Part shown: positions 5,788-55,274 of the stretch, piece by piece
How the letters are laid out: each line of letters begins with the position of its first letter
Position numbering within the stretch: position 1 is the first letter of the stretch
Origin: a bacterium
Lineage (GTDB): Bacteria > Patescibacteriota > Patescibacteriia > SG8-24
Assembly (NCBI GenBank): GCA_023246195.1
Contig: JAHFIW010000004.1
Location: forward strand, 1 to 61,974
Length of the DNA: 61,974 bases
Reading direction: 5' to 3'
Program-made: the position numbers and the translations under genes
The notes under the pieces: model-generated
Seen by the model: the letters and a program-made list of their open reading frames with translations, nothing else
Database searches by the model: none
What the model was told of the DNA's origin: nothing

Positions 5788-8007
5788 CTACTTTTTAGGC
5801 TTGGCTTGGGCATTTTCGACCAACGTCTTGAAGCGCATGTTGCGGATGCGAAGCGAGTTGGCCACGACCGAAACGGACGAAAAGGCCATGGCAGCCGAGG
5901 CGATCATGGGTGTCAAAAAGCCGAGTGCGGCAACAGGCACGGCCATGATGTTATAGAAAAAAGCCCAAAAGAGATTCTGCTGGATGACCGAGAATGTCTG
6001 ACGTGACAGGCGCAACGCATCGACGACCTTCGACGGATTACCCTTGACCAGCACGATGCTGCCGGCCTCGATGGCAATATCGGTGCCAGTGCCCACCGCG
6101 ACGCCTAAGTCGGCCTGGACCAGCGCTGGCGCGTCGTTGATGCCATCGCCGACGAAGCCCACAATGCGCCCTTCTTCCTGCAACCGCTTGATTTCAACGG
6201 ACTTCTGTTGCGGCAAGACTTCGGGGATGACGTGATTTGGAGGAATGCCCAGCAGCAAGGCGATGGCCATGGCCGTGCCGCGATTATCACCGGTGAGCAT
6301 GAAAACCTCGATACCGTCGGCACGAAGATCCTCGACGGCGCGGCGCGCATCGGTCTTGGCGATATCGGCAATTGCCACCAGGCCACTCGGTACGTCGTCG
6401 ATGAAGATGCGCACTGCCGTTTTTCCCTGCTCTTCGAGCTTGGAAAGCAGGAACAGCCCTTCGGCTGAAAGCGCCTCGCCGCCATCCGCGATCTTGCCGC
6501 TGCCAATGCGCACCTTATGCCCCTCAATGACGCCTTCAATGCCCTTGCCGGGCAAGACCGTAAACTCATAGGTCCTGGCAAGGGCGAGATTGCGCTTTTT
6601 GGCTTCGGCCACGATGGCGCGAGCTAACGGGTGCTCGGAATACGTTTCAAGCGAGGCGGCGATGCGCAACGCTTCATCCGCTGGCATGGCGGCCAACGCG
6701 ACGACGTCGGTGACGGTCGGCCTGCCTTCGGTCAACGTACCCGTCTTGTCGAACACGATGGTATCCACGGCATGCGCCTTCTCCAGGGCCTGACCATTCT
6801 TTATGATGATGCCGTGCTGTGCGCCGGTGCCCGTACCCACCATGATGGCCGTCGGCGTCGCCAAGCCCAGCGCGCATGGACAGGCGATGACCAGTACCGC
6901 GACCGCCGGAATCAGCGCGCTGCTCACGTCGCCCGTACTGGCATACCAGGCGATGGCCGTCAGCGCCGCAATCATCAGCACCACCGGCACGAAGACGGAT
7001 GAAACGCGATCGACGAGTTTTTGAATCGGGGTCTTCTTGCCTTGCGCTTCGGCCACCATGCGCACGATCTGCGCCAGCGCCGTGTCCCCCGCCAACTTCT
7101 TCACCTCCACGATGAGCATGCCGTTCTGGTTCATCGTGGAACCGAAGACGTCGTCGGCAGGATGCTTGCCGACCGGAAGGCTTTCGCCGGTGAGCATCGA
7201 CTCGTCAACGGACGAGTCGCCCTGCAGCACCACGCCGTCCAGCGGGATTTTTTCTCCGGGCTTTACCAGCAGCATGTCGCCGATTTTCACCGCGTCAATC
7301 GGCACTTCGCGGTCAGACCCGTCAAAAAGGAACAGGCGCGCGTCTTTGGCGCCTAATTCCATCAGCTTGCGAATGGCATCCGAGGCGCTGCCTCGGCTTT
7401 TTTCCTCAAAGTACTGCCCTATCAGGATGAGCATCGCGACCATGGTCGCCGTCACGAAATAGACATGGCCGTAGCCGGAAAGTGCGGACCAGAAGCTGTA
7501 AAAAAAGGTCGAAGCAGTACCGATGGACACGAGAGTGTCCATGTTGGCGGCACCGATGCGAAGTTGAGAGGCCATGCCCACATGAAATGACCATCCCAGC
7601 ACGAAGACGACGATTCCCGTCAAGATCATCTGCATCCAATGCACCGAACTGATGTGCAACGAGACTCCCGGAAGGGTGAAATTGAGCAACGACGTGATGA
7701 TGGTGGGCGCGGAAAAGATGATCGCCAACTGCATTCGCAACTTTGCCGTAGCCACGACCTTGCGTTCCTCGGCGCCCTGCTCATCCTTGTGGCCGGAGGC
7801 CATGACCTTGTAACCCGTGCCGATGACCGCATCGTAAAGCGCGGTCTCATCGGTGGCAGAGGTGTCGAAAGTGACCGTGGCCGTGTGCGTGCCAAAATTT
7901 ACCGCGGCCTCAATCACGCCAGGCAGCCGAACGAGCGCGCGCTCGTTGCGCACCGAACAGGAAGCGCAATGCATCCCGACAATCATGAATTGAATCGTTT
8001 TCTTCAT
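5788..8007 (-). CDS. copA: copper-translocating P1B-type ATPase (CopA-like)
   Basis: HMA domain [13 protein letters not shown] motif ([11 protein letters not shown]), DKTGTLT phosphorylation site and GDGINDAP hinge. Start taken at ATG 8007 ([17 protein letters not shown]); the track ORF extends to 8085. Confidence 0.92.
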
Positions 8008-9577: not shown

Positions 9578-10342
9578 ATGCACATACCTGCCGTCCCCAT
9601 TGCCTACCTCGCGGGCCTGCTATCGTTTTTTGCCCCCTGCGGCGCAGTGCTTCTGCCCAGTTTTTTTGCCTACACCTTCAAGAAGCGCTCTGAGCTGATC
9701 GTAGCCACTTTCTGGTTCCTCGCGGGATTTTTGACGCTGTTCATTCCTCTTGGCTTAGGCATCCGCCTCATCTCGACGCCGCTGCTGTTGCATCGCCGCG
9801 AGCTCACCTGGCTCGGCGGCATCCTGTTTTTCGGACTCGCCGCTTACGCCCTTGCCGGACGAAGCCTGCACGTTCCAGTGCCGCAGTTTCTCAGCAAGCG
9901 CGGTTTTCATCACGACTCGCTTTCGTCGTACCTGATCGGCATAGTCTTCGGCTTCACCGTAGCCGGATGTACCGCTCCACTGCTGGGCATGGTTTTTGCG
10001 CTTTCGGCGATGGAACGCAATCGCCTCTTTTCACTGGTGATCCTCACCTCCTACGGCATCGGCTTGGCAACGCCCCTGCTCGCGCTGGCCTTCGTCGCCG
10101 ACAGGGTAAAGTTGCTAAAGCATCCCGCGCTCAAGGGAAAATTGTTGAAGTTCAAAATGGCCGACAAGGAGCATACGGTGCACTCCACGAACGCCATCGC
10201 CGCGGCATTCATGGTGTTGCTGGGAGTCGTCTTTATCGCATCTCAAGGCACGTTCTTCATGAGCAGTCTCGGCGCGGATTCGAAGCTGGCGGACTTCAAC
10301 ATGAACGCCGCCGACTATCTGGCCATGCTGCACTATCGATAA
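9578..10342 (+). CDS. ccdA: CcdA/DsbD-family thiol-disulfide transmembrane electron transfer protein
   Basis: Multi-pass membrane protein with conserved Cys in TM1 (SFFAPCGAVLLP) and a later TM (VAGCTAPLLG). Confidence 0.65.
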   Translation: MHIPAVPIAYLAGLLSFFAPCGAVLLPSFFAYTFKKRSELIVATFWFLAGFLTLFIPLGLGIRLISTPLLLHRRELTWLGGILFFGLAAYALAGRSLHVPVPQFLSKRGFHHDSLSSYLIGIVFGFTVAGCTAPLLGMVFALSAMERNRLFSLVILTSYGIGLATPLLALAFVADRVKLLKHPALKGKLLKFKMADKEHTVHSTNAIAAAFMVLLGVVFIASQGTFFMSSLGADSKLADFNMNAADYLAMLHYR

Positions 10343-15842: not shown

Positions 15843-18539
15843 CTAAGCCTGCGTCGAGGCCATCTCATGCAAAACGTAGGCCATGATGCCGCCCGCGCGG
15901 AAATACTCGACCTCCACCGGCGAATCGAGACGGCAGCGCATGGCAAAGGTCTTGGTTCGGCCATCGGCGTCCGTCGCCGTGACGGAAACAGCGGCGTTCG
16001 GCGCAAGCGTTGCGATGCCGATAATGTCGTAGGTTTCCCTGCCGGTAAGCCCCAGTATCGCGGGCGTCTCGCCTTTCATGAACTCCAGCGGCAATACGCC
16101 CATGCCCACCAGGTTGCTGCGATGGATGCGCTCGACGCTTTCGAACAGCACTGCGCGCACGCCCAACAGTCGCACGCCCTTGGCCGCCCAGTCGCGCGAG
16201 GAACCCATGCCGTAGTCCTTGCCGGCGATGATCACCAACGGCGTCCCCTCCTCGGCGTAGCGCTCGGAGGCATCATACACGCTGGAGATCTCGTTGCTCG
16301 GAACGTACAGCGTGGCATTGCCCTCGGTCCCGCTCACCAGCAGGTTCTTGAGCCGCGAGTTTGCGAAGGTCCCGCGCATCATCACCTCATGATTGCCGCG
16401 GCGTGCGCCATAAGAGTTGAAGTCGGCCGAAGCCACGCCATGCGCGATGAGGTAACGCGCTGCCGGACTCTTCGAGGCGATGGTGCCGGCAGGAGAGATG
16501 TGATCAGTAGTCACGGAATCGCCAAACATCGCCAAGGCTCGTGCGCCATGGATGTCGGTCGGAACCACGGCTTCGTCGAAGAACGGCGGGCGGCGAATGT
16601 ACGTAGACGCCGGTTCCCAGGCGTACAGGTTTCCGGTCGGTGCGGCAACGGCGTTCCACTCGGCGCCGCCTCGAAAGATATTCGCATATTGGCTGCGAAA
16701 CAATTCCGGAGTAAGTGCCGAACTGACCGCGGCAGAGATGTCGTGCGACGACGGCCAGATGTCCTTGAGATACGTCGACGTACCGTCCGCGGCGACCCCG
16801 AGCGGCTCGGTCGCAAAATCGATGTCCATCCGTCCGGCCAGCGCGTACGCGACGACCAGGGGCGGAGATGCCAAATAATTCGCCCGAGTAGAAGGGTGCA
16901 CTCGGCCTTCGAAGTTGCGATTACCCGAAAGCACCGCGGCACCGACCAAGTCGGACGACTCCACTGCCGCCGCGACATGCTCGTCGATCGGTCCGCTGTT
17001 GCCGATGCAGGTAGTGCAGCCGTACCCTACCAAGTTGAAGCCAAGGGCGTTCAGGCCGTCCATGAGGCCGGCAGCCTGCAGATACGAAGTGACGGCGCGC
17101 GAACCGGGCGCAAGGCTGGTCTTCACGTAAGCCGGCACGGTCAGCCCGCGCTCAGCCGCGCGCTTGGCGAGCAGGCCGGCAGCGAGCATCACCGACGGGT
17201 TGGAGGTGTTCGTACAGCTGGTGATTGCCGCAATCAGCACGGAGCCGTGCCGCAACGTCACGTCCTTGCCGTGCACGTTGACGACCGCCGAGGCGCCGAC
17301 GGCCTCCGGCGCGATGCCGTAACCGTTTGCTGACACCGGCGCGACCAATGTCTCCCTGAACGAGCGTCGCATGTCCGCGAGAAGCACGCGATCCTGCGGA
17401 CGCTTCGGTCCGGCAAGCGACGGTTGCACGGCTGAAAGATCGAACGAAAGCGTTTCCGTGTATGACGGCACTGCGGAATCGGCAGCACGAAACATTCCCT
17501 GCGCCTTCATGTAGCGCCCCACGAATTCCACATATGCCTCGTCGCGGCCCGTCTGCCGGAGATACCGCAGCGTTTCGTCATCAACGGGAAAGTATCCGAC
17601 CGTGGCGCCGTACTCCGGCGCCATGTTGGCAATCGTGGCGCGATCCGCCAACGACAGGGCGTCGATGCCCGCGCCGTAAAATTCCACGAACTTCTCGACG
17701 ACACCGTGCTTGCGAAGCGTCTGCGTCAGGGTCAGTACCGCGTCGGTTGCGGTCACGCCTTCGCGCAACGCGCCTAACAATTCCACGCCGACCACTTTCG
17801 GCGCAGTCATGGCGATCGGTTGTCCGAGCATGGCCGCCTCGGCCTCGATGCCGCCGACGCCCCACCCCAGCACGCCCAACCCGTTGATCATGGTGGTATG
17901 CGAATCCGTGCCCACCAGAGAGTCCGGTGCGGCCACCAGCTCGCCGTCGACCGAGCGGACCTGCACCACCGTGGCAAGGTTCTCAAGATTCACCTGATGC
18001 ACGATACCCATGCCCGGCGGCACGACCCGGAAATCCTTGAAGGCCCCCTGACCCCATTTGAGAAAAGAGTAGCGCTCGCCGTTGCGTAAAAATTCCTTGC
18101 GGCTGTTTTCTGCCGACGCTTCCGGCGTACCCGAGTAATCCACCTGCACCGAATGATCGATCACCAAGTCCACGGGAATGCGCGGATTGATGCGCGCAGG
18201 GTCACCGCCGCCCTTGGCCACCGCATCGCGCATGGCAGCCAGATCGGCGACCGCCGGAACGCCGGTGAAATCCTGCAGCAACACGCGACTGGGCATGAAA
18301 CCGAACTCCGACCCCTCTTCGCCGATGCCGTCCGACTTCCATGCCGCCAGGCGCTCGACGTCTTGTCTCGTCACCAGCTTGTCATCGCAGTTGCGCACTG
18401 TCGCCTCCAAGAGCACGCGCACCGAATACGGCAACCTCGTCACGTTCGGATAACGGGATTCGAGCGCGCGCAGGTCCGCATAGGACGCCTCGCCTGCTGG
18501 AGACTTGATTTTTCGCATCACTCCAAAAAGGTCATTCAT
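15843..18539 (-). CDS. acnA: aconitate hydratase (AcnA/IRP type)
   Basis: About 900 aa, colinear with AcnA (RLPYSVRVLLE, DSHTTMINGLGVLGWGVGGIEAEA, TSCTNTSNP, GCTTCIGNSGP, SGNRNFEGR). Start taken at ATG 18539 (MNDLFGVMRK). Confidence 0.92.
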   Translation of the reverse strand: MNDLFGVMRKIKSPAGEASYADLRALESRYPNVTRLPYSVRVLLEATVRNCDDKLVTRQDVERLAAWKSDGIGEEGSEFGFMPSRVLLQDFTGVPAVADLAAMRDAVAKGGGDPARINPRIPVDLVIDHSVQVDYSGTPEASAENSRKEFLRNGERYSFLKWGQGAFKDFRVVPPGMGIVHQVNLENLATVVQVRSVDGELVAAPDSLVGTDSHTTMINGLGVLGWGVGGIEAEAAMLGQPIAMTAPKVVGVELLGALREGVTATDAVLTLTQTLRKHGVVEKFVEFYGAGIDALSLADRATIANMAPEYGATVGYFPVDDETLRYLRQTGRDEAYVEFVGRYMKAQGMFRAADSAVPSYTETLSFDLSAVQPSLAGPKRPQDRVLLADMRRSFRETLVAPVSANGYGIAPEAVGASAVVNVHGKDVTLRHGSVLIAAITSCTNTSNPSVMLAAGLLAKRAAERGLTVPAYVKTSLAPGSRAVTSYLQAAGLMDGLNALGFNLVGYGCTTCIGNSGPIDEHVAAAVESSDLVGAAVLSGNRNFEGRVHPSTRANYLASPPLVVAYALAGRMDIDFATEPLGVAADGTSTYLKDIWPSSHDISAAVSSALTPELFRSQYANIFRGGAEWNAVAAPTGNLYAWEPASTYIRRPPFFDEAVVPTDIHGARALAMFGDSVTTDHISPAGTIASKSPAARYLIAHGVASADFNSYGARRGNHEVMMRGTFANSRLKNLLVSGTEGNATLYVPSNEISSVYDASERYAEEGTPLVIIAGKDYGMGSSRDWAAKGVRLLGVRAVLFESVERIHRSNLVGMGVLPLEFMKGETPAILGLTGRETYDIIGIATLAPNAAVSVTATDADGRTKTFAMRCRLDSPVEVEYFRAGGIMAYVLHEMASTQA

Positions 18540-18588
18540 GGTATGCTTATTCAACTCGCATGCAAAGCGTGCGGCCCCCTCCTTCATC

Positions 18589-18596
18589 AGTATAGA
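18589..18596. promoter_or_regulatory. overlapping back-to-back -10 boxes: TATAGA (+, icd) and TATACT (-, acnA)
   Basis: agtataga read at 18589-18596 in the 71-bp acnA-icd spacer. The icd ATG lies 14 nt downstream. Confidence 0.4.
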
Positions 18597-18610
18597 AATC
18601 TTCAACGAAT

Positions 18611-19825
18611 ATGTCACGACAGAAGATCGCGGTGAAATCCCCCCTGGTAGAGCTGGACGGCGACGAGATGACTCGTGTCATTTGGGCACTTATAAAGGAA
18701 AAGCTGATTTTGCCGTATCTCGACGTCACGCTTGAATATTACGATCTGGGTATCCGCAACCGCGACGCCACCGGCGACAGGGTCACGTCAGACTCCGCCG
18801 CGGCCATCCTCAAGCATGGCGTGGGCGTCAAATGCGCCACGATCACCCCTAACGCCGACCGCGTGAAGGAATACGACCTCGCCAAGGAGTGGCCCAGCCC
18901 CAACGCCACCATCCGCGGCATTCTCGACGGCACGGTTTTCCGCAAACCCATCCTGGTGAAGAGCATCCCGCCGATGGTTCACGGTTGGAAAAAGCCCATC
19001 GTCATCGCCCGCCATGCCTATGGCGACATTTACAAGAACGCCGAGTTCGCCCCCTGGGGCGCCGGCGATGCCGAATTGGTATTCAAGGGCGCAAACGGAC
19101 TGGAGGAACGCATCCCCGTGGCCAAGCTCAAAGGTCCCGGCGTACTGCAGGCCATCCATAATACCGACGCTTCCATTCGTTCGTTCGCACAAGCGTGCAT
19201 TGCGTACGCGCTTTCGGAAAAGATCGACATCTGGTTCGGCGCCAAGGACACGATTTCCAAAATCTACCACGCCCGCTTCCGCGCCATCTTCGCAGAAGAG
19301 GTCGATGCCAAAAAGAAAGACCTCGAAGCGGCGGGCGTGACTTATTCCTACGGCCTGATCGACGACATCGTCGCTCGCGTCATGCGCAGCGAAGGCGGAA
19401 TGCTTTGGGCCTGCATGAACTATGACGGTGACGTCATGTCCGACATGCTTGCTGCCGGCTTCGGCAGCCTTGGCCTGATGACCTCGGTACTGGTCAGCCC
19501 CAGCGGCGCCTTCGAATTCGAGGCTGCCCACGGTACCGTGCAGCGCCACTACTACAGGCACCTCAAAGGCGAACCCACTTCGACTAATTCCGTTGCCAGC
19601 ATCTTTGCCTGGGCAGGTGCCCTCTCCAAGCGCGGCGAGCTGGACGGCACCCCGGAAGTGATTGAGTTCAGCCGCAATCTCGAGGAAGCCACCGTGGACT
19701 GCATCGACCGCGGCATCATGACCAAGGACCTCGTCTCTCTCTCCGATCTCGGCGTCTCCGAGCCCGCCACGACCCAAAGCTTCATTGACGCCGTGGCGGC
19801 CCGACTTTCCGAGATTCGCGGCTAA
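18611..19825 (+). CDS. icd: NADP-dependent isocitrate dehydrogenase, subfamily II (eukaryote-like homodimeric type)
   Basis: 404 aa. N-terminus [21 protein letters not shown], plus [28 protein letters not shown] motifs characteristic of type II IDH. Confidence 0.92.
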
Positions 19826-24004: not shown

Positions 24005-24340
24005 TTATGCAGCCACGTCACTGAGAAACGAGACGACGATTGAAACGATAAGGCTGAACAGCAGGGCCCACCAGAAGCCACGAACGCCAAAGCCCGGAAC
24101 GAGCTTGGCCACGAGCAAAACCATCAACGCGTTGATGACGAACAAAAACAAACCGAACGTCAACGCGGTGACGGGAAAGGTCAGCACTATCAATACGGGC
24201 TTGATGAACGCGTTCACCAAACCGAGGACGATGGCAACGACAACGGCCGTACCGTAGCTGTCGACGACGATGCCCGGCAGCAGGTAGGCGGCAACGATGA
24301 CGGCAAGCGTGTTGATGAGGATATTGAGAAGAAGGCGCAT
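24005..24340 (-). CDS. phage-holin-family-4 / DUF360-like four-TM membrane protein
   Basis: 111 aa, MRLLLNILINTLAVIVAAYLLPGIVVDSYGTAVVVAIVLGLVNAFIKPVL..., typical of the YvlD/DUF360 family. Confidence 0.7.
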   Translation of the reverse strand: MRLLLNILINTLAVIVAAYLLPGIVVDSYGTAVVVAIVLGLVNAFIKPVLIVLTFPVTALTFGLFLFVINALMVLLVAKLVPGFGVRGFWWALLFSLIVSIVVSFLSDVAA

Positions 24341-45402: not shown

Positions 45403-46344
45403 TTAACTCAGGAACTGCGCATAATAGCCGATGAACGCGACGTAAAAGGCAATCAAGAACCAACCCTCGACGCGATCGAGCGAGCGCCTGGTCCACATGA
45501 ACATGCCGAACAGCGCCACCAGCGCGGTCAGGAAGGCGCAAGAAGCCATCACTGCGGCATACTGCGGAACGGTGAACGGGCTGATAAGGGCGAGCAATCC
45601 GAGCGTCGGCGTATTCATGAGCGTACTGCCAAAAAGGTCGCCGAGAACGACATCGTTATGCCTGCGCGATTCAGTCAGCACGAAGGTCGTCTCCGGGACA
45701 TTGGTGCCGACCGAAAACAGCATCAAGCCGATGATGAGCGCGGAAATGCCGAGCTCTTTGGCGACGAGCACGGCCGACGATACCAGGAAATACGAAGCCA
45801 CCAGCAACACCGACATGGCAACGATTCCGATGATGGCGTTCCTCCGCAAAGACTTGCCTGAATTCGCGTGCGTCGCAAAGGCCCGGCCGTCCTTCTTCTG
45901 CACGCGGTACATGTGCGCCATAAAGCCGACATGCGCCGCAATGAGCACCATCCCGTCCGCGCGTGTCAGCCTCCCGTCAACGAGCACCGCCGCAGGCAAA
46001 AGCACGTCGAGCAAAAAAAGCACCAGGGTGCCGTTTCGGTAAAGCGAATTGTGCCTCACCTTCCCCGAGATGACCGCGGAAAGGCCGACCAACAGCGACA
46101 GGATGACGATATTGGCACCGATCAAGTCGCCCAGAGAGAGTTCCGGCATGCCGCGAGCCGCGGAAAAGACGGCCACTGAAATTTCCGGCATCGAAGTGGC
46201 GAAACCGAGCACTCCGAAAGAAACGAGGAAGCCGCTGAGGCTCACGCCGCGGGCGATGCCGCTGACCGAGCGGGCGATGTAGCTCGCGGCACGGCTCACC
46301 ACTAACGAAAGGGCGGCTATCAGGAGGAGATGGAAAATGATCAT
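45403..46344 (-). CDS. CaCA-family sodium/calcium exchanger membrane protein (YrbG-like)
   Basis: Two alpha-repeat motifs (GFATSMPEISVAVFSA...LGDLIGANIVILSL and SVGTNVPETTFVLTES...VLGDLFGSTLMN). Its ATG 46344 overlaps the helicase stop as ATGA. Confidence 0.8.
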   Translation of the reverse strand: MIIFHLLLIAALSLVVSRAASYIARSVSGIARGVSLSGFLVSFGVLGFATSMPEISVAVFSAARGMPELSLGDLIGANIVILSLLVGLSAVISGKVRHNSLYRNGTLVLFLLDVLLPAAVLVDGRLTRADGMVLIAAHVGFMAHMYRVQKKDGRAFATHANSGKSLRRNAIIGIVAMSVLLVASYFLVSSAVLVAKELGISALIIGLMLFSVGTNVPETTFVLTESRRHNDVVLGDLFGSTLMNTPTLGLLALISPFTVPQYAAVMASCAFLTALVALFGMFMWTRRSLDRVEGWFLIAFYVAFIGYYAQFLS

Positions 46345-47972
46345 TGCCGTACCAATCCAAGCTTCTTGAGCCGAGAGCGAATGCCTCCCGTTTTGCGACC
46401 GAGCGCCGCCGCCATGTCGCGGACTTTTGCGCCGCCGCCATGCAGGACGATGAGCCTGTCCTGTTCCTCGTCCGTCCATTTTTCGTAGGCGTTGACGTGT
46501 TTCTGGTTGACGTCTTCCGAAGAGAATGACCGTAACGGCGCTTCTTCGGGGCAGACGTTCTCTGCAGGGCCCGCCGCGGATTTCCTGTCGGATTTTCTTA
46601 TCTTGGTCCCTGCGGTCTTCCCTGCCTTCGGCTCCTTCTTCATCTTGCCGCCGCAGCGCGTGACGAAGGCCGCCTCCAACGCGAATTTTTCTTCTCCGTC
46701 CATGCCCTCTATCCAGACGGAAGCCTGATTCGACTCTTCCTTGAAATCCTGATCCTTAAGCAGGATGTCGGGATGCACGGAGAGCGCCTTCTTTCCGAAG
46801 TCGATCAAGTACAAACCGGACAATCGCCGCACGCGCGACAAGGCCACATAGCCCTGCCCGTATTCAAAGGCGTTCGACAGATCCATGATTGCGGCGTCTA
46901 AGCTCATGCCCTGACTCTTGTGCACCGTCATGGCCCAGGCGAGCCGAAGCGGCACCTGCTCCACCGAGCCGCGTTTCTTCCCGTTCTCTTCTACCGACCA
47001 TTCCTTCGGCTCGGCAACCACGCGTTCGCCGCCGCGAGTGCGCACGATCGGATTGCCGCTGCCGATCTCGAACCCCTCAACGACGCCAAGCGTGCCGTTG
47101 ACGTAGCCCATCTGCGGATTGTTACGAGTGAACATCACGGCCGCGCCCAACTTCAGATGCAAAACTTCAGGCGAGAGACAGCCTCGCTTCAGCGATGCCA
47201 CCACGCCGTCCTTGCCGCTCGATCGCATCAAATACGTTTTCGGGCTGCCGGGAAGTCGGGTCAACGCATCGGCATTCAGCCGGTCGACGTCGGCATTGTG
47301 CGGAAACAGCTTGACCACGTCGTCGACGTCCTCGCCCTCGGCTGCCATGCGCGAGCGCAACAGGTCCAAATGCTCGGTCGTCACCTGGTTCTCGCGAATG
47401 GCCGTGAGCACCGACAAGAACTCGCCGTCGTCTTGGCGATATTGCCCTTCCAAGTAGCAGACCAGCGGTCGATACGCCGCCCATGCGGGAGAGGCGAAAG
47501 CGAAGGTTGCGCGAGGTTCACCGCGATCGACGCGCGACACCGGCGGCAGCTGAAAGAAGTCACCGACGCAAATGAGCTGGATGTCCCCGAAAGCCGCAGG
47601 ATTCTGCCGGATAGCGCGACAGACCGTGTCGACCATGGAAAAAGTGCGGGCATCAAGCATCGAAATCTCATCGATGATCAGCACCTGCGTCTTGAGAATG
47701 CGCCGCACCAGCGGCTCGTTGCTCGTAATCTGATCGATGTCCCAAGCCGAAAGCGACGAACGGATGCCGATGCCGCTCCAGGAATGAATCGTCATGCCGC
47801 CGATGTGCGTGGCCGCGATGCCGGTAGACGCCGTCACCGCCGGCTCAATCCCCCGCTCCCGAAGCCATGCAACGTAGGCGTTAACGGTGTGCGTCTTACC
47901 CGAACCGGGCCCACCCGTGAGGAAGGCGTTCGCGCCGGTCTTGAGCAGTGAGAGCGCCTGTTCTTGAGTCAT
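46341..47972 (-). CDS. PIF1/RecD-like SF1B DNA helicase with a C-terminal HTH extension
   Basis: Walker A TGGPGSGKTHTV, Walker B LIIDEISMLD, motif V/VI TVHKSQGMSLD...YVALSRV. C-terminal WTDEEQDRLIVLHGGGAKVRDMAAALGRKTGGIRSRLKKLGL. Confidence 0.85.
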   Translation of the reverse strand: MTQEQALSLLKTGANAFLTGGPGSGKTHTVNAYVAWLRERGIEPAVTASTGIAATHIGGMTIHSWSGIGIRSSLSAWDIDQITSNEPLVRRILKTQVLIIDEISMLDARTFSMVDTVCRAIRQNPAAFGDIQLICVGDFFQLPPVSRVDRGEPRATFAFASPAWAAYRPLVCYLEGQYRQDDGEFLSVLTAIRENQVTTEHLDLLRSRMAAEGEDVDDVVKLFPHNADVDRLNADALTRLPGSPKTYLMRSSGKDGVVASLKRGCLSPEVLHLKLGAAVMFTRNNPQMGYVNGTLGVVEGFEIGSGNPIVRTRGGERVVAEPKEWSVEENGKKRGSVEQVPLRLAWAMTVHKSQGMSLDAAIMDLSNAFEYGQGYVALSRVRRLSGLYLIDFGKKALSVHPDILLKDQDFKEESNQASVWIEGMDGEEKFALEAAFVTRCGGKMKKEPKAGKTAGTKIRKSDRKSAAGPAENVCPEEAPLRSFSSEDVNQKHVNAYEKWTDEEQDRLIVLHGGGAKVRDMAAALGRKTGGIRSRLKKLGLVRQ

Positions 47973-47991: not shown

Positions 47992-48144
47992 CGAGGGAGC
48001 CGTGACTTACCATGTGGCCGAAAAGCGGGCAAATCGGAGCTTACATGACAAAAATGCGGGCTGTGGATGGTTCAACGATTGTCAGCCTTGCAATTACGCG
48101 CTCAATTGCCTATGCTGCCTCCTCTATTCATCATATCCATGCAT

Positions 48145-48738
48145 ATGCAGATTGCATTTCCGCGTCTCCGCGTGGCTGTTGCAGCGGTCGGCATCGCCAT
48201 CGCCGCCTTCGCAACATCCGTCGTCCCCACGGCCACTTCCACCACGGTCGCTTCGGCCGCCTCGTCCGACTACTTCCTTAAGATCGACGGCATCGACGGC
48301 GAATCCACCTCCGTCACGCACCCTGGCACCATCGACGTCGAATCATGGTCATGGGGCGCTTCCAACCCGATCACTGTCGGGGCAGGCGGCATGGGCGTCG
48401 GCAAGGTCTCGGTCAGCGACCTGAGCTTCACCCATCGCATCGACAAGGCATCTCCCAAGCTGTTCGAGGCCTGCGCAACCGGCAAGCATCTCTCCAAGGT
48501 TACGCTTTACGCGCAAACCCGCAGCCACTTCAACGGCAATACGCCCAAGGACAACTATGTCCTGACCCTCGAGGACGTCCTCTGCACTTCGATCCAGCAC
48601 TCCGGAACGCAGAATGACTACCCGCAGGACGCCGTCACTTTAAACTTCGCCAAACTCAAGATCGACTACGCCCCGCCGGGACCGGACGCCGCCCTCATCA
48701 GCGTCGGCTGGGACCGCACCAAGAGCTCCAGCCTGTAG
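48145..48738 (+). CDS. Hcp-fold protein (T6SS tube protein family) preceded by a Sec-type signal peptide
   Basis: Residues from about 41 onward align motif by motif with Hcp1: DYFLKIDGIDGES, IDVESWSWG, GKVSVSDLSFTHRIDKASPKLFEACATGKH, LTLEDVLCTS, VTLNFAKLKIDY. N-terminus MQIAFPRLRVAVAAVGIAIAAFATSVVPTATSTTVASA. An alternative upstream ATG at 48067 only lengthens the hydrophobic N-terminus. Confidence 0.8.
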   Translation: MQIAFPRLRVAVAAVGIAIAAFATSVVPTATSTTVASAASSDYFLKIDGIDGESTSVTHPGTIDVESWSWGASNPITVGAGGMGVGKVSVSDLSFTHRIDKASPKLFEACATGKHLSKVTLYAQTRSHFNGNTPKDNYVLTLEDVLCTSIQHSGTQNDYPQDAVTLNFAKLKIDYAPPGPDAALISVGWDRTKSSSL

Positions 48739-48753
48739 CCGCTCCGTCAGATC

Positions 48754-48791
48754 AACGAAAAACGCGGGGACTTTCCCTGCGTTTTTCGTTG
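48754..48791 (+). terminator. intrinsic terminator after the Hcp-like gene
   Basis: Long stem AACGAAAAACGCGGGG / CCCTGCGTTTTTCGTT (one mismatch). Confidence 0.65.
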
Positions 48792-48867
48792 AAAATCCGC
48801 GTTTCCGATACGCATCTGCGCCGAACCTGTCAGAACCCCACACCCCAAGACCTGATCACATTTTGCA

Positions 48868-49278: not shown

Positions 49279-50781
49279 TCATTTCCCTGATCCTTCGCTC
49301 GCATGTTCCCGTATCGTGTTCAAGAAAATCTCACCGAAGGTTTCCAGCTTCTTGGCACCGACGCCGTAGAGCTTGGAAAACGCGACCAGCGTCGTCGGCC
49401 TGGTGTCGGCCATCTCCATAAGGCTCTTGTCGCCGAAGATGACGTAGGCCGGGACCTTGCGCTCATCGGCAAGCGTTTTGCGGAGTTTGCGCAGCTTCTC
49501 GAAAAGCACGATGTCTTTGACCGCGTCCTTGACGCCGTCCTTGCCACGGACTCGGGATGCGCCGCTCGGCGCAACGCATTCCATCTCGCGCGGCGGCAGA
49601 CAGGTGTCGCACGAGCCGCAATTTTCCGGCAGGTCGGTTTCGCCGAAGTATCGCAGCAAGTAGCGGCGGCGGCAGACGCCGTCATCGGCGTAGCGCACGA
49701 CCTCGTCGATCTTGCGCGTGGCCTTGATCTTCTCGGCGACGTTTTGGATCTGGTTCACGAAGAACATGTGCTTCCAGCGATCGCCCGCGGAAAAGAACAG
49801 CACGCACTCGCTCGGCAGGCCGTCGCGTCCGGCACGGCCGGTTTCCTGATAATAGCCCTCGACTGATTTGGGCATGTCGTAATGCACCACCAGACGCACG
49901 TTCGGCTTGTTGATGCCCATGCCAAACGCGATGGTCGCCACGACGATGCGGACGTCGTCGCGGATGAAGGCCTCCTGCACTTTGGCGCGCAAAGGGGCAT
50001 CCAGGCCGGCGTGATACGCCTCGGCAACGAAACCCTCGCGGCGCAACTGCTCGGCGAGTTCCTCGGTGGATTTTTTGGAGAAACGGTAAATGATGACGCT
50101 CTCTTCCTTGCGTTCCTTGAGCAAGCCGAGAAGCTGCGCGAAAGCCTTCTGTTTTTTGAGGACGCCGTAGGTGAGATTGGGACGATCAAAGCTCGAGGTG
50201 AAGACGCGGCCGCCGTACAGTCGGAGCTGCTTCATGATATCATCACGCACCTTGGGCGTGGCCGTCGCGGTGAGCGCGATCACCGGCACGGTCGGAAAGG
50301 CCGCACGGAGGTTGGCGAGATTACGATAGTCGGGACGGAAATCGTGTCCCCACTCGGAAATGCAGTGCGCCTCGTCCACGGCGATAAGCGACACTGGCAG
50401 CGAACGGATGAAGCCGGCGCCGCCTGAATATCCGAGCCGTTCTGGCGCGATATACAAAATCTTGATGCGTCCTCCCAGCACCTGACGATGAATGTGCGAA
50501 ATCTCCCCCGGCGGCAACGAGCTGTTCAGGCAGGCTGCGGCGATACCGGCGGCATTGAGGCTGTCCATCTGGTCCTTCATCAGCGAAATCAGGGGCGAGA
50601 TCACCAAGGTGAGGCCGTCGAGCATCACTGCCGGAAGCTGATAGCAAAGCGACTTTCCGCCGCCCGTGGGCATCAGCACCAGCGCGTCCTTGCCGGCCAT
50701 GACATGATTGACGATTTCATCCTGCGGCGGACGGAAGGCGTCGTAGCCGAAGTAGCGTTTGAGGTATTCGAGGGGAAGCAT
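49279..50781 (-). CDS. recQ: ATP-dependent DNA helicase RecQ (short form, 500 aa)
   Basis: FRPPQ, MPTGGGKSLCYQLPA, DEAHCISEWGHDFRPDY, and the RecQ-Ct zinc motif (CRRRYLLRYFGE...CGSCDTC). Confidence 0.92.
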   Translation of the reverse strand: MLPLEYLKRYFGYDAFRPPQDEIVNHVMAGKDALVLMPTGGGKSLCYQLPAVMLDGLTLVISPLISLMKDQMDSLNAAGIAAACLNSSLPPGEISHIHRQVLGGRIKILYIAPERLGYSGGAGFIRSLPVSLIAVDEAHCISEWGHDFRPDYRNLANLRAAFPTVPVIALTATATPKVRDDIMKQLRLYGGRVFTSSFDRPNLTYGVLKKQKAFAQLLGLLKERKEESVIIYRFSKKSTEELAEQLRREGFVAEAYHAGLDAPLRAKVQEAFIRDDVRIVVATIAFGMGINKPNVRLVVHYDMPKSVEGYYQETGRAGRDGLPSECVLFFSAGDRWKHMFFVNQIQNVAEKIKATRKIDEVVRYADDGVCRRRYLLRYFGETDLPENCGSCDTCLPPREMECVAPSGASRVRGKDGVKDAVKDIVLFEKLRKLRKTLADERKVPAYVIFGDKSLMEMADTRPTTLVAFSKLYGVGAKKLETFGEIFLNTIREHASEGSGK

Positions 50782-53046: not shown

Positions 53047-53071
53047 CCCCGGACCAGAAGTTCGGGGTTTT
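53047..53071 (+). other. plus-strand hairpin plus T4 (CCCCGGA-N7-TTCGGGG-TTTT) just upstream of the 53103 gene promoter
   Basis: Read directly. Same arrangement as 8068-8098 upstream of the paralogous gene. Confidence 0.4.
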
Positions 53072-53090
53072 GATGACAATTAAAATGCGC

Positions 53091-53096
53091 TATACT
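53091..53096 (+). promoter_or_regulatory. -10 box TATACT, 6 nt from ATG 53103 (implies a leaderless mRNA)
   Basis: tatact tatggt ATGaaaaaa read directly. Confidence 0.45.
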
Positions 53097-53102
53097 TATG
53101 GT

Positions 53103-55274
53103 ATGAAAAAATCGCTCTCACTGCTACTCCTTGCCAACGCCCTCTTACTGCCGCTTTCCGCGCACGCGCTCGAGGTGCTTCCAAACTTCAACCCTAACGT
53201 CATCGTGCTCGATGCCGCCTTTACGGATCTCAGGACTTTCACGGGACCCGAAGGCATCCAGCGCTTTCTCGAATCCAAGGGCAGCGTCCTTGCCAACACG
53301 TCGCCGGATTTCCTGGTAAAGCTCGGCGAACCCGACAGCGTCTCCCTCAAACAGACTCTCGACGACCCGGAACCGAACCTCGGCAGGCTGCGTACGGCTG
53401 CGGAAATCATATGGGATGCCGGGCAATCGAGCGGCATGAATCCCCAGGTGATCTTGGTCACGCTGCAAAAGGAACAGGGACTCATCGGTGACGTCGACCC
53501 CAGTCGCCTGCAACGAGCGCTTAATCACGCCATGGGTTTCGACTGTCCTGACTCCTCGGGCTGCGGCAACCTGTTTCCCGGTTTCTACTACCAGCTGTTC
53601 GGCAACGTCGACACGCAAGGCAACCGATACTTGGGGGCAACCAAGTCGCTCATGAAGTCCTTCGTCACGCCTGGCGGACGCGGACCGACCATCGCCGGCT
53701 TACCCGCGCACGTGGGGCAAAACATCACCGTCGCAAATACGCTTGGCGATTACTTCGGCATTCCCGCGCTCCAGACCGTCACCATCGGCAACGCGGCGAC
53801 GGCAGCGCTCTATCGCTATACCCCGCACGTATTCAACGGCAACTACAACTTTTGGAAATTTTTCACCTCGTGGTTCAAGTATCCCAACGGCACGCTCATC
53901 CGCTCTACGGCCGACGACACCGTCTACATCATCAGCGACGGGGCATTACGCCGCGTCCCCACGTTCGTCTCGGTCGCGCGCCAGCTCGGCCTCGGCACGG
54001 CCATCACCGCTTCTCCGACGGAAATAAGCGGCTATCCCATCGGCCCTACCTACGGCCCGGTAGACGACACGGTCATCTCGCTGAACGGCCAGTTCTACGT
54101 TTTCATAGACAGCGTCAAGCATCCGGCCAGCAGCTTCGTGCTCACCAAGCGCAAACTGGACCCGGCGATGATCCTGCCTATCTCCCCCGCCGACGCCGAC
54201 CTGTTTGAAACGGGTACGCAGCTCACCCCGCCGGACGGTACGGTCCTTAAGACGCCGAGCAGTGCCGACGTCTACCTGGTCGACGGCGGCATGCTCAAAA
54301 AGTACAGCGCATTCACCTTCAAGCAGTTCAAGGCAAGCAAGTTGCTCCAGATACTTCCCGCCGAAGAAGTAGCGCTGTATCCGAAGCAGGGCTACGTCGC
54401 TCCGATGAACGGCACGCTCATCAAGAGCCTCAACGGCGACGGCATCTACCTGATGAGCGACGAACGCCGACTGCCGCTCACGCCGGAGCTGTTCAAGAAT
54501 CGCGGCTACAGCAAAAAAAACGTAGTCGCGCTGACCACCGATGAAGAGATCGCCTCAATTCCCGTCGGGCCGCCGGCGACGCCTAAGGATGACACGTTCT
54601 TCTTGCTCGACACCGAACTTTTCATCTTCACGTCCGGTGCCAAACACCCCATCTTCCCGTTCGTCGCCAAACAGCGCGGCATCAAGGCTGACTACGCCTT
54701 CGAAGCCAGCATTGCCAGCACTTGGCCGGACGGCATCGCCATTTCTCCCAAGGACGGTACCGTATTGCGCGGAAAAACCGATTCAACCACGTACGTAGTC
54801 ATCAAGGGCCAACTCCGCGCACTCACCAGTCAGCTCTTCAAGCTGCTCGGCTTCAACCCAAAAAAGACACTGACCGTCGATGACGGGGAGATTGCGGCGC
54901 TGGCCAAGGGTCCCTACGCCGAACCGCCGGAGAACACCTATTTTCAGGCGCAGGGCGGCGAAGTCTACGTATTCATGCATGACACAAAGCGCCGCATCTA
55001 TCCGTTCGTCGCCAAACAGCGCGGCATGACGCCCGACTACGCGTTCACCGCCGATCAGGTCAATGACTGGACCCTCGGCGACCCCGTCGCCCCGCGAGAA
55101 GGGACGCTGCTTCGTGCCGACAATGCAAGCGCCATATATCTGGTATCGAACGGAAAGCTGAGACCCCTATCAACGCTCGCATTCGCAAAGCGCGGCTACA
55201 ACGTCAAGAAGGTTCTGACGGTTCCGGCCGCGGACATGAGCGCCTTCCCCAAAGGAGACGCGATTGCCAAGTAA
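53103..55274 (+). CDS. large secreted cell-wall-associated protein (723 aa), paralog of 8127..9557
   Basis: Signal peptide MKKSLSLLLLANALLLPLSAHA. NPQVILVTLQKEQGL motif. At least seven C-terminal repeat modules (DDTVYIISDGALRRV, SADVYLVDGGMLKKY, GDGIYLMSDERRLPL, DSTTYVVIKGQLRAL, GGEVYVFMHDTKRRI, ASAIYLVSNGKLRPL). Confidence 0.75.
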   Translation: MKKSLSLLLLANALLLPLSAHALEVLPNFNPNVIVLDAAFTDLRTFTGPEGIQRFLESKGSVLANTSPDFLVKLGEPDSVSLKQTLDDPEPNLGRLRTAAEIIWDAGQSSGMNPQVILVTLQKEQGLIGDVDPSRLQRALNHAMGFDCPDSSGCGNLFPGFYYQLFGNVDTQGNRYLGATKSLMKSFVTPGGRGPTIAGLPAHVGQNITVANTLGDYFGIPALQTVTIGNAATAALYRYTPHVFNGNYNFWKFFTSWFKYPNGTLIRSTADDTVYIISDGALRRVPTFVSVARQLGLGTAITASPTEISGYPIGPTYGPVDDTVISLNGQFYVFIDSVKHPASSFVLTKRKLDPAMILPISPADADLFETGTQLTPPDGTVLKTPSSADVYLVDGGMLKKYSAFTFKQFKASKLLQILPAEEVALYPKQGYVAPMNGTLIKSLNGDGIYLMSDERRLPLTPELFKNRGYSKKNVVALTTDEEIASIPVGPPATPKDDTFFLLDTELFIFTSGAKHPIFPFVAKQRGIKADYAFEASIASTWPDGIAISPKDGTVLRGKTDSTTYVVIKGQLRALTSQLFKLLGFNPKKTLTVDDGEIAALAKGPYAEPPENTYFQAQGGEVYVFMHDTKRRIYPFVAKQRGMTPDYAFTADQVNDWTLGDPVAPREGTLLRADNASAIYLVSNGKLRPLSTLAFAKRGYNVKKVLTVPAADMSAFPKGDAIAK

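Follow-up and report, generated by a model that had tools for sequence, protein, structure and literature searches.

Hcp, also termed TssD, is the tube protein in type VI secretion systems (T6SS). In its canonical form it lacks a signal peptide and polymerises within the TssB/C sheath in the cytoplasm, and its gene usually lies in or near a T6SS cluster. The detection of Hcp in culture supernatants is the standard test of an active T6SS. The hcp gene described here is found in a stretch of 61,974 nucleotides (contig JAHFIW010000004.1 of assembly GCA_023246195.1; the whole stretch is referred to as the window) and encodes a bare Hcp domain preceded by a predicted signal peptide. The overall reading, which is considered probable, is that this Hcp-family protein is exported rather than fired by a T6SS and forms a ring outside the membrane. 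Its parts are not equally firm: export and independence from a T6SS, as judged from sequence, are very probable, and ring formation, which is argued by analogy, is reasonably probable.

By sequence and predicted fold, the window protein is a real member of the Hcp family. PF05638 (T6SS_HCP) is matched with 115.4 bits against a cut-off of 23.5 (E = 2.7e-33), with residues 44–175 covering positions 1–129 of the 129-position profile, and the closest solved relative in a phmmer search against the PDB is Pseudomonas aeruginosa Hcp1 (1y12, E = 1e-28). An AlphaFold2 (AF2) model, built from a 60-homologue alignment, has a mean predicted local distance difference test score (pLDDT) of 87.1 and consists of a helix at residues 7–25 followed by a beta-rich domain. 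When this model is compared with the PDB by Foldseek, all 50 of the 50 best matches are Hcp structures, the top ten of which have target-normalised TM-scores of 0.86–0.92 and root-mean-square deviations of 1.4–3.3 Å. The tube family of extracellular contractile injection systems (eCIS) and phage tails, PF06841, is not matched, PF05638 being the only match of the window protein, and sheath or baseplate genes were not found in the window. A viral origin was considered and rejected; relatives are absent from IMG/VR contigs, and the sole PHROG match is to a family without known function.

The leader has the anatomy of a signal peptide for the Sec pathway and signal peptidase I, namely a charged n-region, an h-region, and small residues at −3 and −1, as judged by inspection and family statistics. 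The n-region, MQIAFPRLR, contains two arginines (+2), and the h-region, VAVAAVGIAIAAFATSVV, comprises 18 uncharged residues. The c-region, PTATSTTVASA, is rich in proline, serine, and threonine and places A-S-A at −3 to −1, such that the predicted cut falls between ASA and ASS and is followed by D-Y-F-L-K. In-frame starts 3′ of the first codon are limited to two: codon 10 is a GTG that still precedes the hydrophobic core, and codon 83 is an ATG within the Hcp domain. There is no usable start 3′ of the hydrophobic core; therefore, the leader cannot be annotated away. In the 5′ direction, in-frame ATG codons at 48139, 48112, and 48067 would merely extend the n-region. The true start may be the ATG at 48139 (MHMQ...); a start at 48145 or 48139 is favoured because the nearest homologues begin with MQI.. 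or MHMQ.., and the nearest of all, P0002, likewise has the N-terminus MQI..PR.R..VAA.GIA. An earlier reading of the window, made from the sequence alone and referred to as the sequence-only reading, had proposed an Hcp pattern from about residue 41, a signal peptide with an AxA site, and the lack of an in-frame ATG between the hydrophobic segment and the Hcp core. The first of these agrees with the full-length PF05638 match, the Hcp1 match in the PDB, and the Foldseek result, the second with inspection and the conservation of the leader in 129 homologues, and the third with the position of the next ATG.

The leader is shared by a large group of Hcp homologues. A word-indexed search returned 1,901 homologues, and most of the top ~60 are proteins of 180–220 residues with a hydrophobic N-terminal extension. 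When 1.84 billion cluster representatives were searched exhaustively, 9,577 matches were obtained. The 266 closest homologues retrieved include 142 proteins with a hydrophobic N-terminal extension and 63 canonical proteins that start no more than 6 residues from the domain, the remainder being multi-domain or unclear. In 125 of 129 leader-bearing single-domain homologues, a lysine or arginine precedes an uncharged stretch, the median length of which is 20 residues. The junction with the domain has the form A-x-A/A, in which alanine occupies −6 in 74, −4 in 83, and −3 in 113 of these 129 sequences, and continues with A, S, or Q, then V or S, and then D-Y-F-L-K. Leaderless relatives start with M-A-A-V-D-Y-F or M-A-V-D-Y-F; therefore, a cut at the conserved site would leave the N-terminus that canonical Hcp has once Met is removed. 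Many relatives have short cleavable leaders of the textbook kind, for example, MKTIILLVMATVFITGFSAQNAFA cut before AS. The leaders are dissimilar in sequence across homologues, and it is the properties of a signal peptide that are conserved, a pattern that speaks for selection on export and against chance. Leader state follows the similarity of the domain, being shared by 153 of 180 nearest neighbours, and the window protein groups with leader-bearing proteins; this grouping is based on distance clustering and nearest-neighbour counts and is not a phylogeny.

The relatives come from several groups. An exact match to the window protein was not found in the contig index, and the source genome is not one of the GTDB species representatives, in which the best Hcp match has 41% identity to the window protein. 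In species representatives, leader-bearing relatives are found in Nitrososphaera, Nitrosopumilales, and Nitrosarchaeum (nine loci), as well as in Candidatus Saccharibacteria (L058) and SAR202 (L163). A further leader-bearing Hcp is encoded in a metagenome-assembled genome labelled “Actinomycetes” (L002), in which the leader, SRRDVLKTGAVGMGALLGAMG...AHA, is of the twin-arginine translocation (Tat) type. Locus L160 places a leader-Hcp relative on a 1.0-Mb contig (Ga0642625_00002) amid genes of the type found in the candidate phyla radiation (CPR), and the relatives nearest to the window protein are each encoded by a lone gene amid small, CPR-like, oppositely oriented genes. A metagenome scan yielded mainly short contigs and leaderless MAAVD forms; matches that appeared to extend over query residues 2–190 were discarded as spurious, since they represent upstream read-through in GC-rich DNA. 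In public records, relatives are labelled “type VI secretion system tube protein Hcp”.

Evidence for independence from a T6SS is provided by the window itself, by the neighbourhoods of the relatives, and by the host lineage. No T6SS, eCIS, or phage-tail gene is present among the 50 open reading frames (ORFs) of the window that were scanned against Pfam, including all those of at least 390 residues. The products of these ORFs include enzymes (aconitase, isocitrate dehydrogenase, and M3 and M23 peptidases), a P-type ATPase and an ABC ATPase, MacB/FtsX together with an HlyD-like protein, SufB and SufD, sigma factors, PGA_cap, Nramp, YibE/F, and an SLT-like protein. As a control, the neighbours of hcp within 10 kb were clustered and named by Pfam at 67 leaderless and 21 leader-bearing loci. 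The leaderless loci are rich in T6SS genes, with TssF at 40, TssA at 39, TssG at 38, ImpE at 37, TssK at 27, and ClpV at 26 of the 67, and at least one of the six at 46. In contrast, none of the six is found at any of the 21 leader-bearing loci. Apparent shared neighbour clusters at the leader-bearing loci proved to be antisense shadow ORFs inside hcp, and a TssC-sized neighbour in L002 is a methyltransferase.

The window contig is assigned to the Parcubacteria/CPR because the relatives of its SufB and PIF1-like helicase are Patescibacteria. SufB has 87% and 81% identity to proteins of Candidatus Parcubacteria and 77% to a protein of the Patescibacteria group (Uhrbacteria), and near-full-length relatives of the helicase are found mainly in Saccharibacteria, Taylorbacteria, Paceibacteria, Moraniibacteriota, and Uhrbacteria. 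The best helicase match, at 77% identity, is on a 403-kb contig (L167, CAZBFO010000001.1) labelled “uncultured Gammaproteobacteria bacterium”. This contig also carries a SufB that is 91% identical to that of the window; its label is probably wrong, the contig being of Patescibacteria. No T6SS is known to have been reported from CPR bacteria or from archaea. The sequence-only reading had noted the absence of T6SS genes from the 62 kb, which the Pfam scan bears out, and had suggested a survey of signal-peptide-bearing homologues and their neighbourhoods. Such a survey, in which the homologues were grouped by distance clustering, finds the leader in many of them and T6SS neighbours at none of 21 leader-bearing loci. 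The central proposal of the same reading, that an Hcp fold has been recruited to Sec export independently of a T6SS, is supported by the conservation of the leader, the host lineage, and the difference between the two sets of loci.

On this basis, a route for the protein can be proposed. Sec would carry the unfolded pre-protein across the cytoplasmic membrane, and signal peptidase I would cut at the predicted site, giving a 159-residue protein whose start, ASSDYFLK, matches the canonical AAVDYFLK from which Met has been removed. The Hcp beta-barrel would then fold outside the membrane, possibly locked by a disulfide, and form a hexameric ring, either in the medium or at the cell surface. In the weakest step of the scheme, the ring would act as a free-standing extracellular scaffold or carrier with a lumen-bound partner, or as a factor on neighbouring or host cells, and not as a sheath-driven tube. 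Confidence in any specific role for the ring, be it scaffold, carrier, or cell-targeting factor, is low. The candidate roles put forward by the sequence-only reading were an extracytoplasmic ring, chaperone, or carrier, or a component for the cell surface or toxin delivery.

The possible disulfide concerns two cysteines. The second of them (VLC147TS) appears in the subclade of the window protein and is found in 21 sequences; 20 are leader-bearing, one has an unclassified N-terminal extension, and none of 54 leaderless sequences has it. Cys110 is present in all 21 of these sequences vs 55 of 106 other leader-bearing forms. It is hypothesised that a Cys110–Cys147 disulfide locks the fold in this subclade, and the predicted strand pairing could place the two positions close together. 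The window also encodes a DsbD/CcdA-like membrane protein, the profile score of which is below the cut-off; it could bear on extracytoplasmic disulfide chemistry.

Other members of the family show further signs of an extracytoplasmic location. In Nitrosopumilales, there are fusions in which a leader-Hcp domain is continued at its C-terminal side by tandem repeats (..P.WIKNNAKWWSEGQITD.DF..GIQYL..), as at L042:3826-5031, L023:9154-9900, L076:617-1846 and 6190-7272, and L198:6604-7779, and the presence of two leader-Hcp paralogues is common in such loci. The same repeats occur in other leader-bearing proteins of those loci, one of which has a zinc-protease motif. The repeats have no match in Pfam and may constitute a cell-surface anchoring module. 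In a diderm bacterium (L161 and L162:750-8352), two leader-Hcp paralogues of 186 and 253 residues are encoded directly 3′ of an operon for a T2SSE/MshE ATPase, a T2SSM-like protein, and a secretin; these proteins may be exported by Sec and then pass through the secretin. The Tat-type leader, which on the homologues L002:5941-6732 and P0100 ends in AHA before E, would imply that Hcp is folded before its export. Apart from these signs, two Nitrososphaera genomes have an ORF without a Pfam match that immediately adjoins the leader-bearing hcp and is convergent with it (L001:10634-19882 and L029:10640-20608, both on the minus strand); in L001, this giant ORF encodes 3,082 residues.

The ring itself finds a parallel in tandem proteins. 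The top-scoring matches of the exhaustive search are multi-Hcp-domain proteins of 800–2,100 residues, and 40 of 60 have exactly six domains (P0121-P0139 and others, as well as L059:93-3386, a 1097-residue protein of Aureliella sp.). Several of the tandem proteins start with L-E-x-L-E-x-R-x-L-L-A, which we take to be a motif typical of planctomycete exported proteins, and some have long C-terminal extensions. The AF2 model of P0123 (1,066 residues, 13-sequence alignment) has a predicted TM-score (pTM) of 0.76, a value that one would not expect if the six domains tumbled independently and that fits a fixed six-domain body. The model is in keeping with a covalently closed pseudo-hexameric ring and suggests that, among relatives of the window protein, the hexamer still serves as the working unit.

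Several observations weigh against the export of a cleaved, ring-forming Hcp and have to be set against other explanations. The signal peptide was called by inspection and from conservation in 129 homologues, and its length of 38 residues, of which 11 belong to the c-region, is such that it could be an uncleaved anchor tethering the Hcp domain to the outer face of the cytoplasmic membrane. The 18-residue h-region and the helix of the AF2 model would suit an anchor, the linker that joins the hydrophobic segment to the domain in many archaeal relatives, at ~20 residues, is long for a c-region, and the C-terminal repeats make some archaeal paralogues look surface-retained. However, the A-x-A/A junction is kept exactly at the domain border even in the long-linker forms, short leaders of the cleavable kind are common among the relatives, and in the window protein a proline closes the h-region ahead of a Ser/Thr-rich stretch and ASA, as befits a c-region. 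An uncleaved anchor is regarded as unlikely. The protein also scores 48.8 bits with the NCBIfam model for TssD (TIGR03344), under the cut-off of 58.9, and because this cut-off is missed, it is taken to be a genuine but divergent Hcp. The window covers 62 kb of the genome, so that taxonomy and analogy with the relatives are the only grounds for excluding a T6SS elsewhere. This coverage and the public annotation of the relatives would speak for a mis-called start, the protein being an ordinary tube protein that stays in the cytoplasm and serves a T6SS in another part of the genome. The only start past the hydrophobic core lies inside the domain, however, the contig belongs to a lineage from which no T6SS is known to have been reported, the leader features are conserved, and T6SS genes were found at none of 21 leader-bearing loci; this explanation is close to refuted.

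The neighbourhoods are also silent on function, since no conserved neighbour gene was found across 13 leader-bearing loci. The exported Hcp might instead belong to some other envelope machine or be its substrate, for example, in a pilus, a system resembling the type II secretion system (T2SS), or a novel extramembrane tube. The secretin operon ahead of the paralogues in L161 and L162 and a pilin-like N_methyl gene no more than 7 kb away in the CPR locus L160 are in line with such a machine. However, pilus or T2SS-like genes are absent near the window hcp, the 13 loci share no conserved neighbour, and the nearest relatives are lone genes; participation in another envelope machine is improbable. 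Lastly, hcp is missing beside the PIF1 helicase in the closest related contig, L167, and for this reason the window hcp is considered accessory and patchy. This patchy distribution, together with the lack of orthologs above 41% identity in GTDB representative genomes, would also be expected of a horizontally acquired hcp that is now a decaying relic without current function. Against decay, the ORF is intact, and its GC content by codon position (0.55/0.48/0.77, hence GC3, the third-position value, of 0.77) is the same as in the remainder of the contig. The Pfam match is full-length, the predicted fold is confident, the family signature residues are retained, and the gene has a hairpin of its own, so a functionless relic is very unlikely. 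Export of an Hcp-family protein that forms a ring outside the membrane remains the reading best in keeping with the evidence as a whole.

The local setting of the gene is simple. It is the only plus-strand gene between those for the PIF1-like helicase and RecQ, which the sequence-only reading had named as its flanking genes and the ORF scan of the window confirms. The same reading had given hcp its own terminator at 48754-48791. A strong hairpin does follow the stop codon of the only plus-strand gene there, but no U-tract is found 3′ of it, and the consensus terminator scan does not list it; terminator function is inferred from the hairpin, which is likely a transcription stop and possibly a bidirectional one. 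The promoter scan found no sigma-70-like promoter 5′ of hcp on the plus strand, and a weak candidate was noted by eye. An Rfam scan of the window gave zero matches. The coordinates are collected in the table.

Table. Positions of the leader-bearing hcp gene, its parts, and other features of the window.
Feature	Position	Strand	Basis
Leader-bearing Hcp homologue, coding sequence	48145-48738	+	ORF listing and sequence; 197 codons plus stop TAG (48736-48738); N-terminus aligns with P0002, P0004, and P0006
Predicted Sec/signal peptidase I signal peptide, residues 1-38	48145-48258	+	Inspection; AF2 helix 7-25; conservation in 129 homologues
Mature Hcp domain (predicted), residues 39-197	48259-48735	+	Pfam residues 44-175 (nt 48274-48669); Cys110/Cys147 pair
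Strong hairpin	48752-48792	+	RNA fold: 19-bp stem, -32 kcal/mol, z = -5.24 vs shuffles; 14 nt past the hcp stop
Weak promoter-like TTGCAA-17-TATGCT, upstream of hcp	48088-48116		By eye
PIF1-like helicase	46341-47972	-	Window ORF scan
RecQ	49279-50781	-	Window ORF scan
DsbD/CcdA-like membrane protein	9578-10342	+	25.4 bits, under the 27.1 cut-off
Aconitase (924 aa, -) and isocitrate dehydrogenase (404 aa, +), adjoining divergently	15843-19825		
Holin-family membrane protein	24005-24340	-	PF04020, E = 4.6e-34
734-aa protein	53070-55274	+	Textbook signal peptide (MKKSLSLLLLANALLLPLSAHA); no Pfam match

Parcubacteria/CPR genomes are usually without enzymes of the tricarboxylic acid cycle, and the window encodes both an aconitase and an isocitrate dehydrogenase. 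The aconitase has 55–61% identity to proteins of representative genomes across many phyla and is uninformative on taxonomy. The 734-residue protein is probably, to judge from its sequence, a large secreted or surface protein. The holin-family membrane protein is also listed in the table.

A separate observation concerns leaderless Hcp loci labelled as Actinomycetota (Thermoleophilia, Gaiellaceae, and others), 19 of which have no T6SS neighbours (L004-L006, L010-L012, L018, L019, L022, L027, L036, L046, L050, L055, L064, L066, L072, L074, and L078). A methyltransferase of ~497 residues (MTS + DUF7059) adjoins hcp in 7 of the 19, as well as in L002 with its Tat-type leader, and a PKMT-like methyltransferase is present at four others of these loci. 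They may represent a third class of Hcp without a T6SS.

Archaea and CPR bacteria have a large clade of Hcp proteins whose leaders are of the Sec or Tat type, which would mean that the fold can leave the cell without a T6SS. The label “T6SS tube protein”, which these genes now have, can falsely suggest the presence of this system in archaeal and CPR genomes. It is a tentative and rather doubtful extension that exported Hcp rings are a widespread T6SS-less extracellular module of ammonia-oxidising archaea, CPR/Patescibacteria, SAR202, and some diderms. In this module, delivery would be by Sec and sometimes by Tat, the product would be self-assembled rings or short tubes, and the six-domain chains would be a covalently closed version. 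If this is true, such rings could carry cargo, bind or perforate neighbouring cells, or help episymbiotic CPR to bridge to their hosts. The cell–cell contact machinery of episymbiotic CPR is largely unknown, and leader-bearing Hcp is a small, tractable candidate for a surface or secreted factor in these organisms and in cultivable ammonia-oxidising archaea. It also raises the evolutionary question of how rings derived from phage tails come to be re-used as ordinary secreted proteins. A literature search that included older comparative papers and did not cover subscription journals found no account of signal-peptide-bearing Hcp, of archaeal or CPR Hcp, or of six-fold tandem Hcp.

Compared with known systems, the window protein is closest to canonical Hcp/TssD. 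It shares with P. aeruginosa Hcp1 (1Y12) the PF05638 family, the predicted fold (TM-score of 0.86), and ~36% identity over aligned residues, and after predicted cleavage its N-terminus matches that of the canonical protein. The canonical protein, however, is made without a leader for assembly within the sheath and is encoded with T6SS genes at most control loci, whereas the window protein has a leader, is encoded on a CPR contig without T6SS context, and falls below the TIGR03344 cut-off. Orphan hcp genes and hcp-vgrG islands are similar in that hcp lies away from the core T6SS cluster, but their products are leaderless and serve a T6SS elsewhere in the same genome; the leader of the window type is conserved. 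“Evolved” Hcp proteins (Hcp-ET) have an N-terminal Hcp module within a longer protein, and C-terminal extensions are likewise present in some of the relatives from archaea and planctomycetes. Hcp-ET are leaderless T6SS substrates, in contrast to the window protein, in which a leader precedes an Hcp domain that is otherwise bare. The tubes of eCIS and tailocins (Afp1/Pvc1, T4 gp19-like, PF06841) have a related fold, end up outside the cell, and occur in monoderms and archaea. However, they belong to another Pfam family, have no signal peptide, are assembled in the cytoplasm with sheath and baseplate, and are released by lysis. The fold and the family are thus known, and what differs is the proposed export route and the genomic setting.

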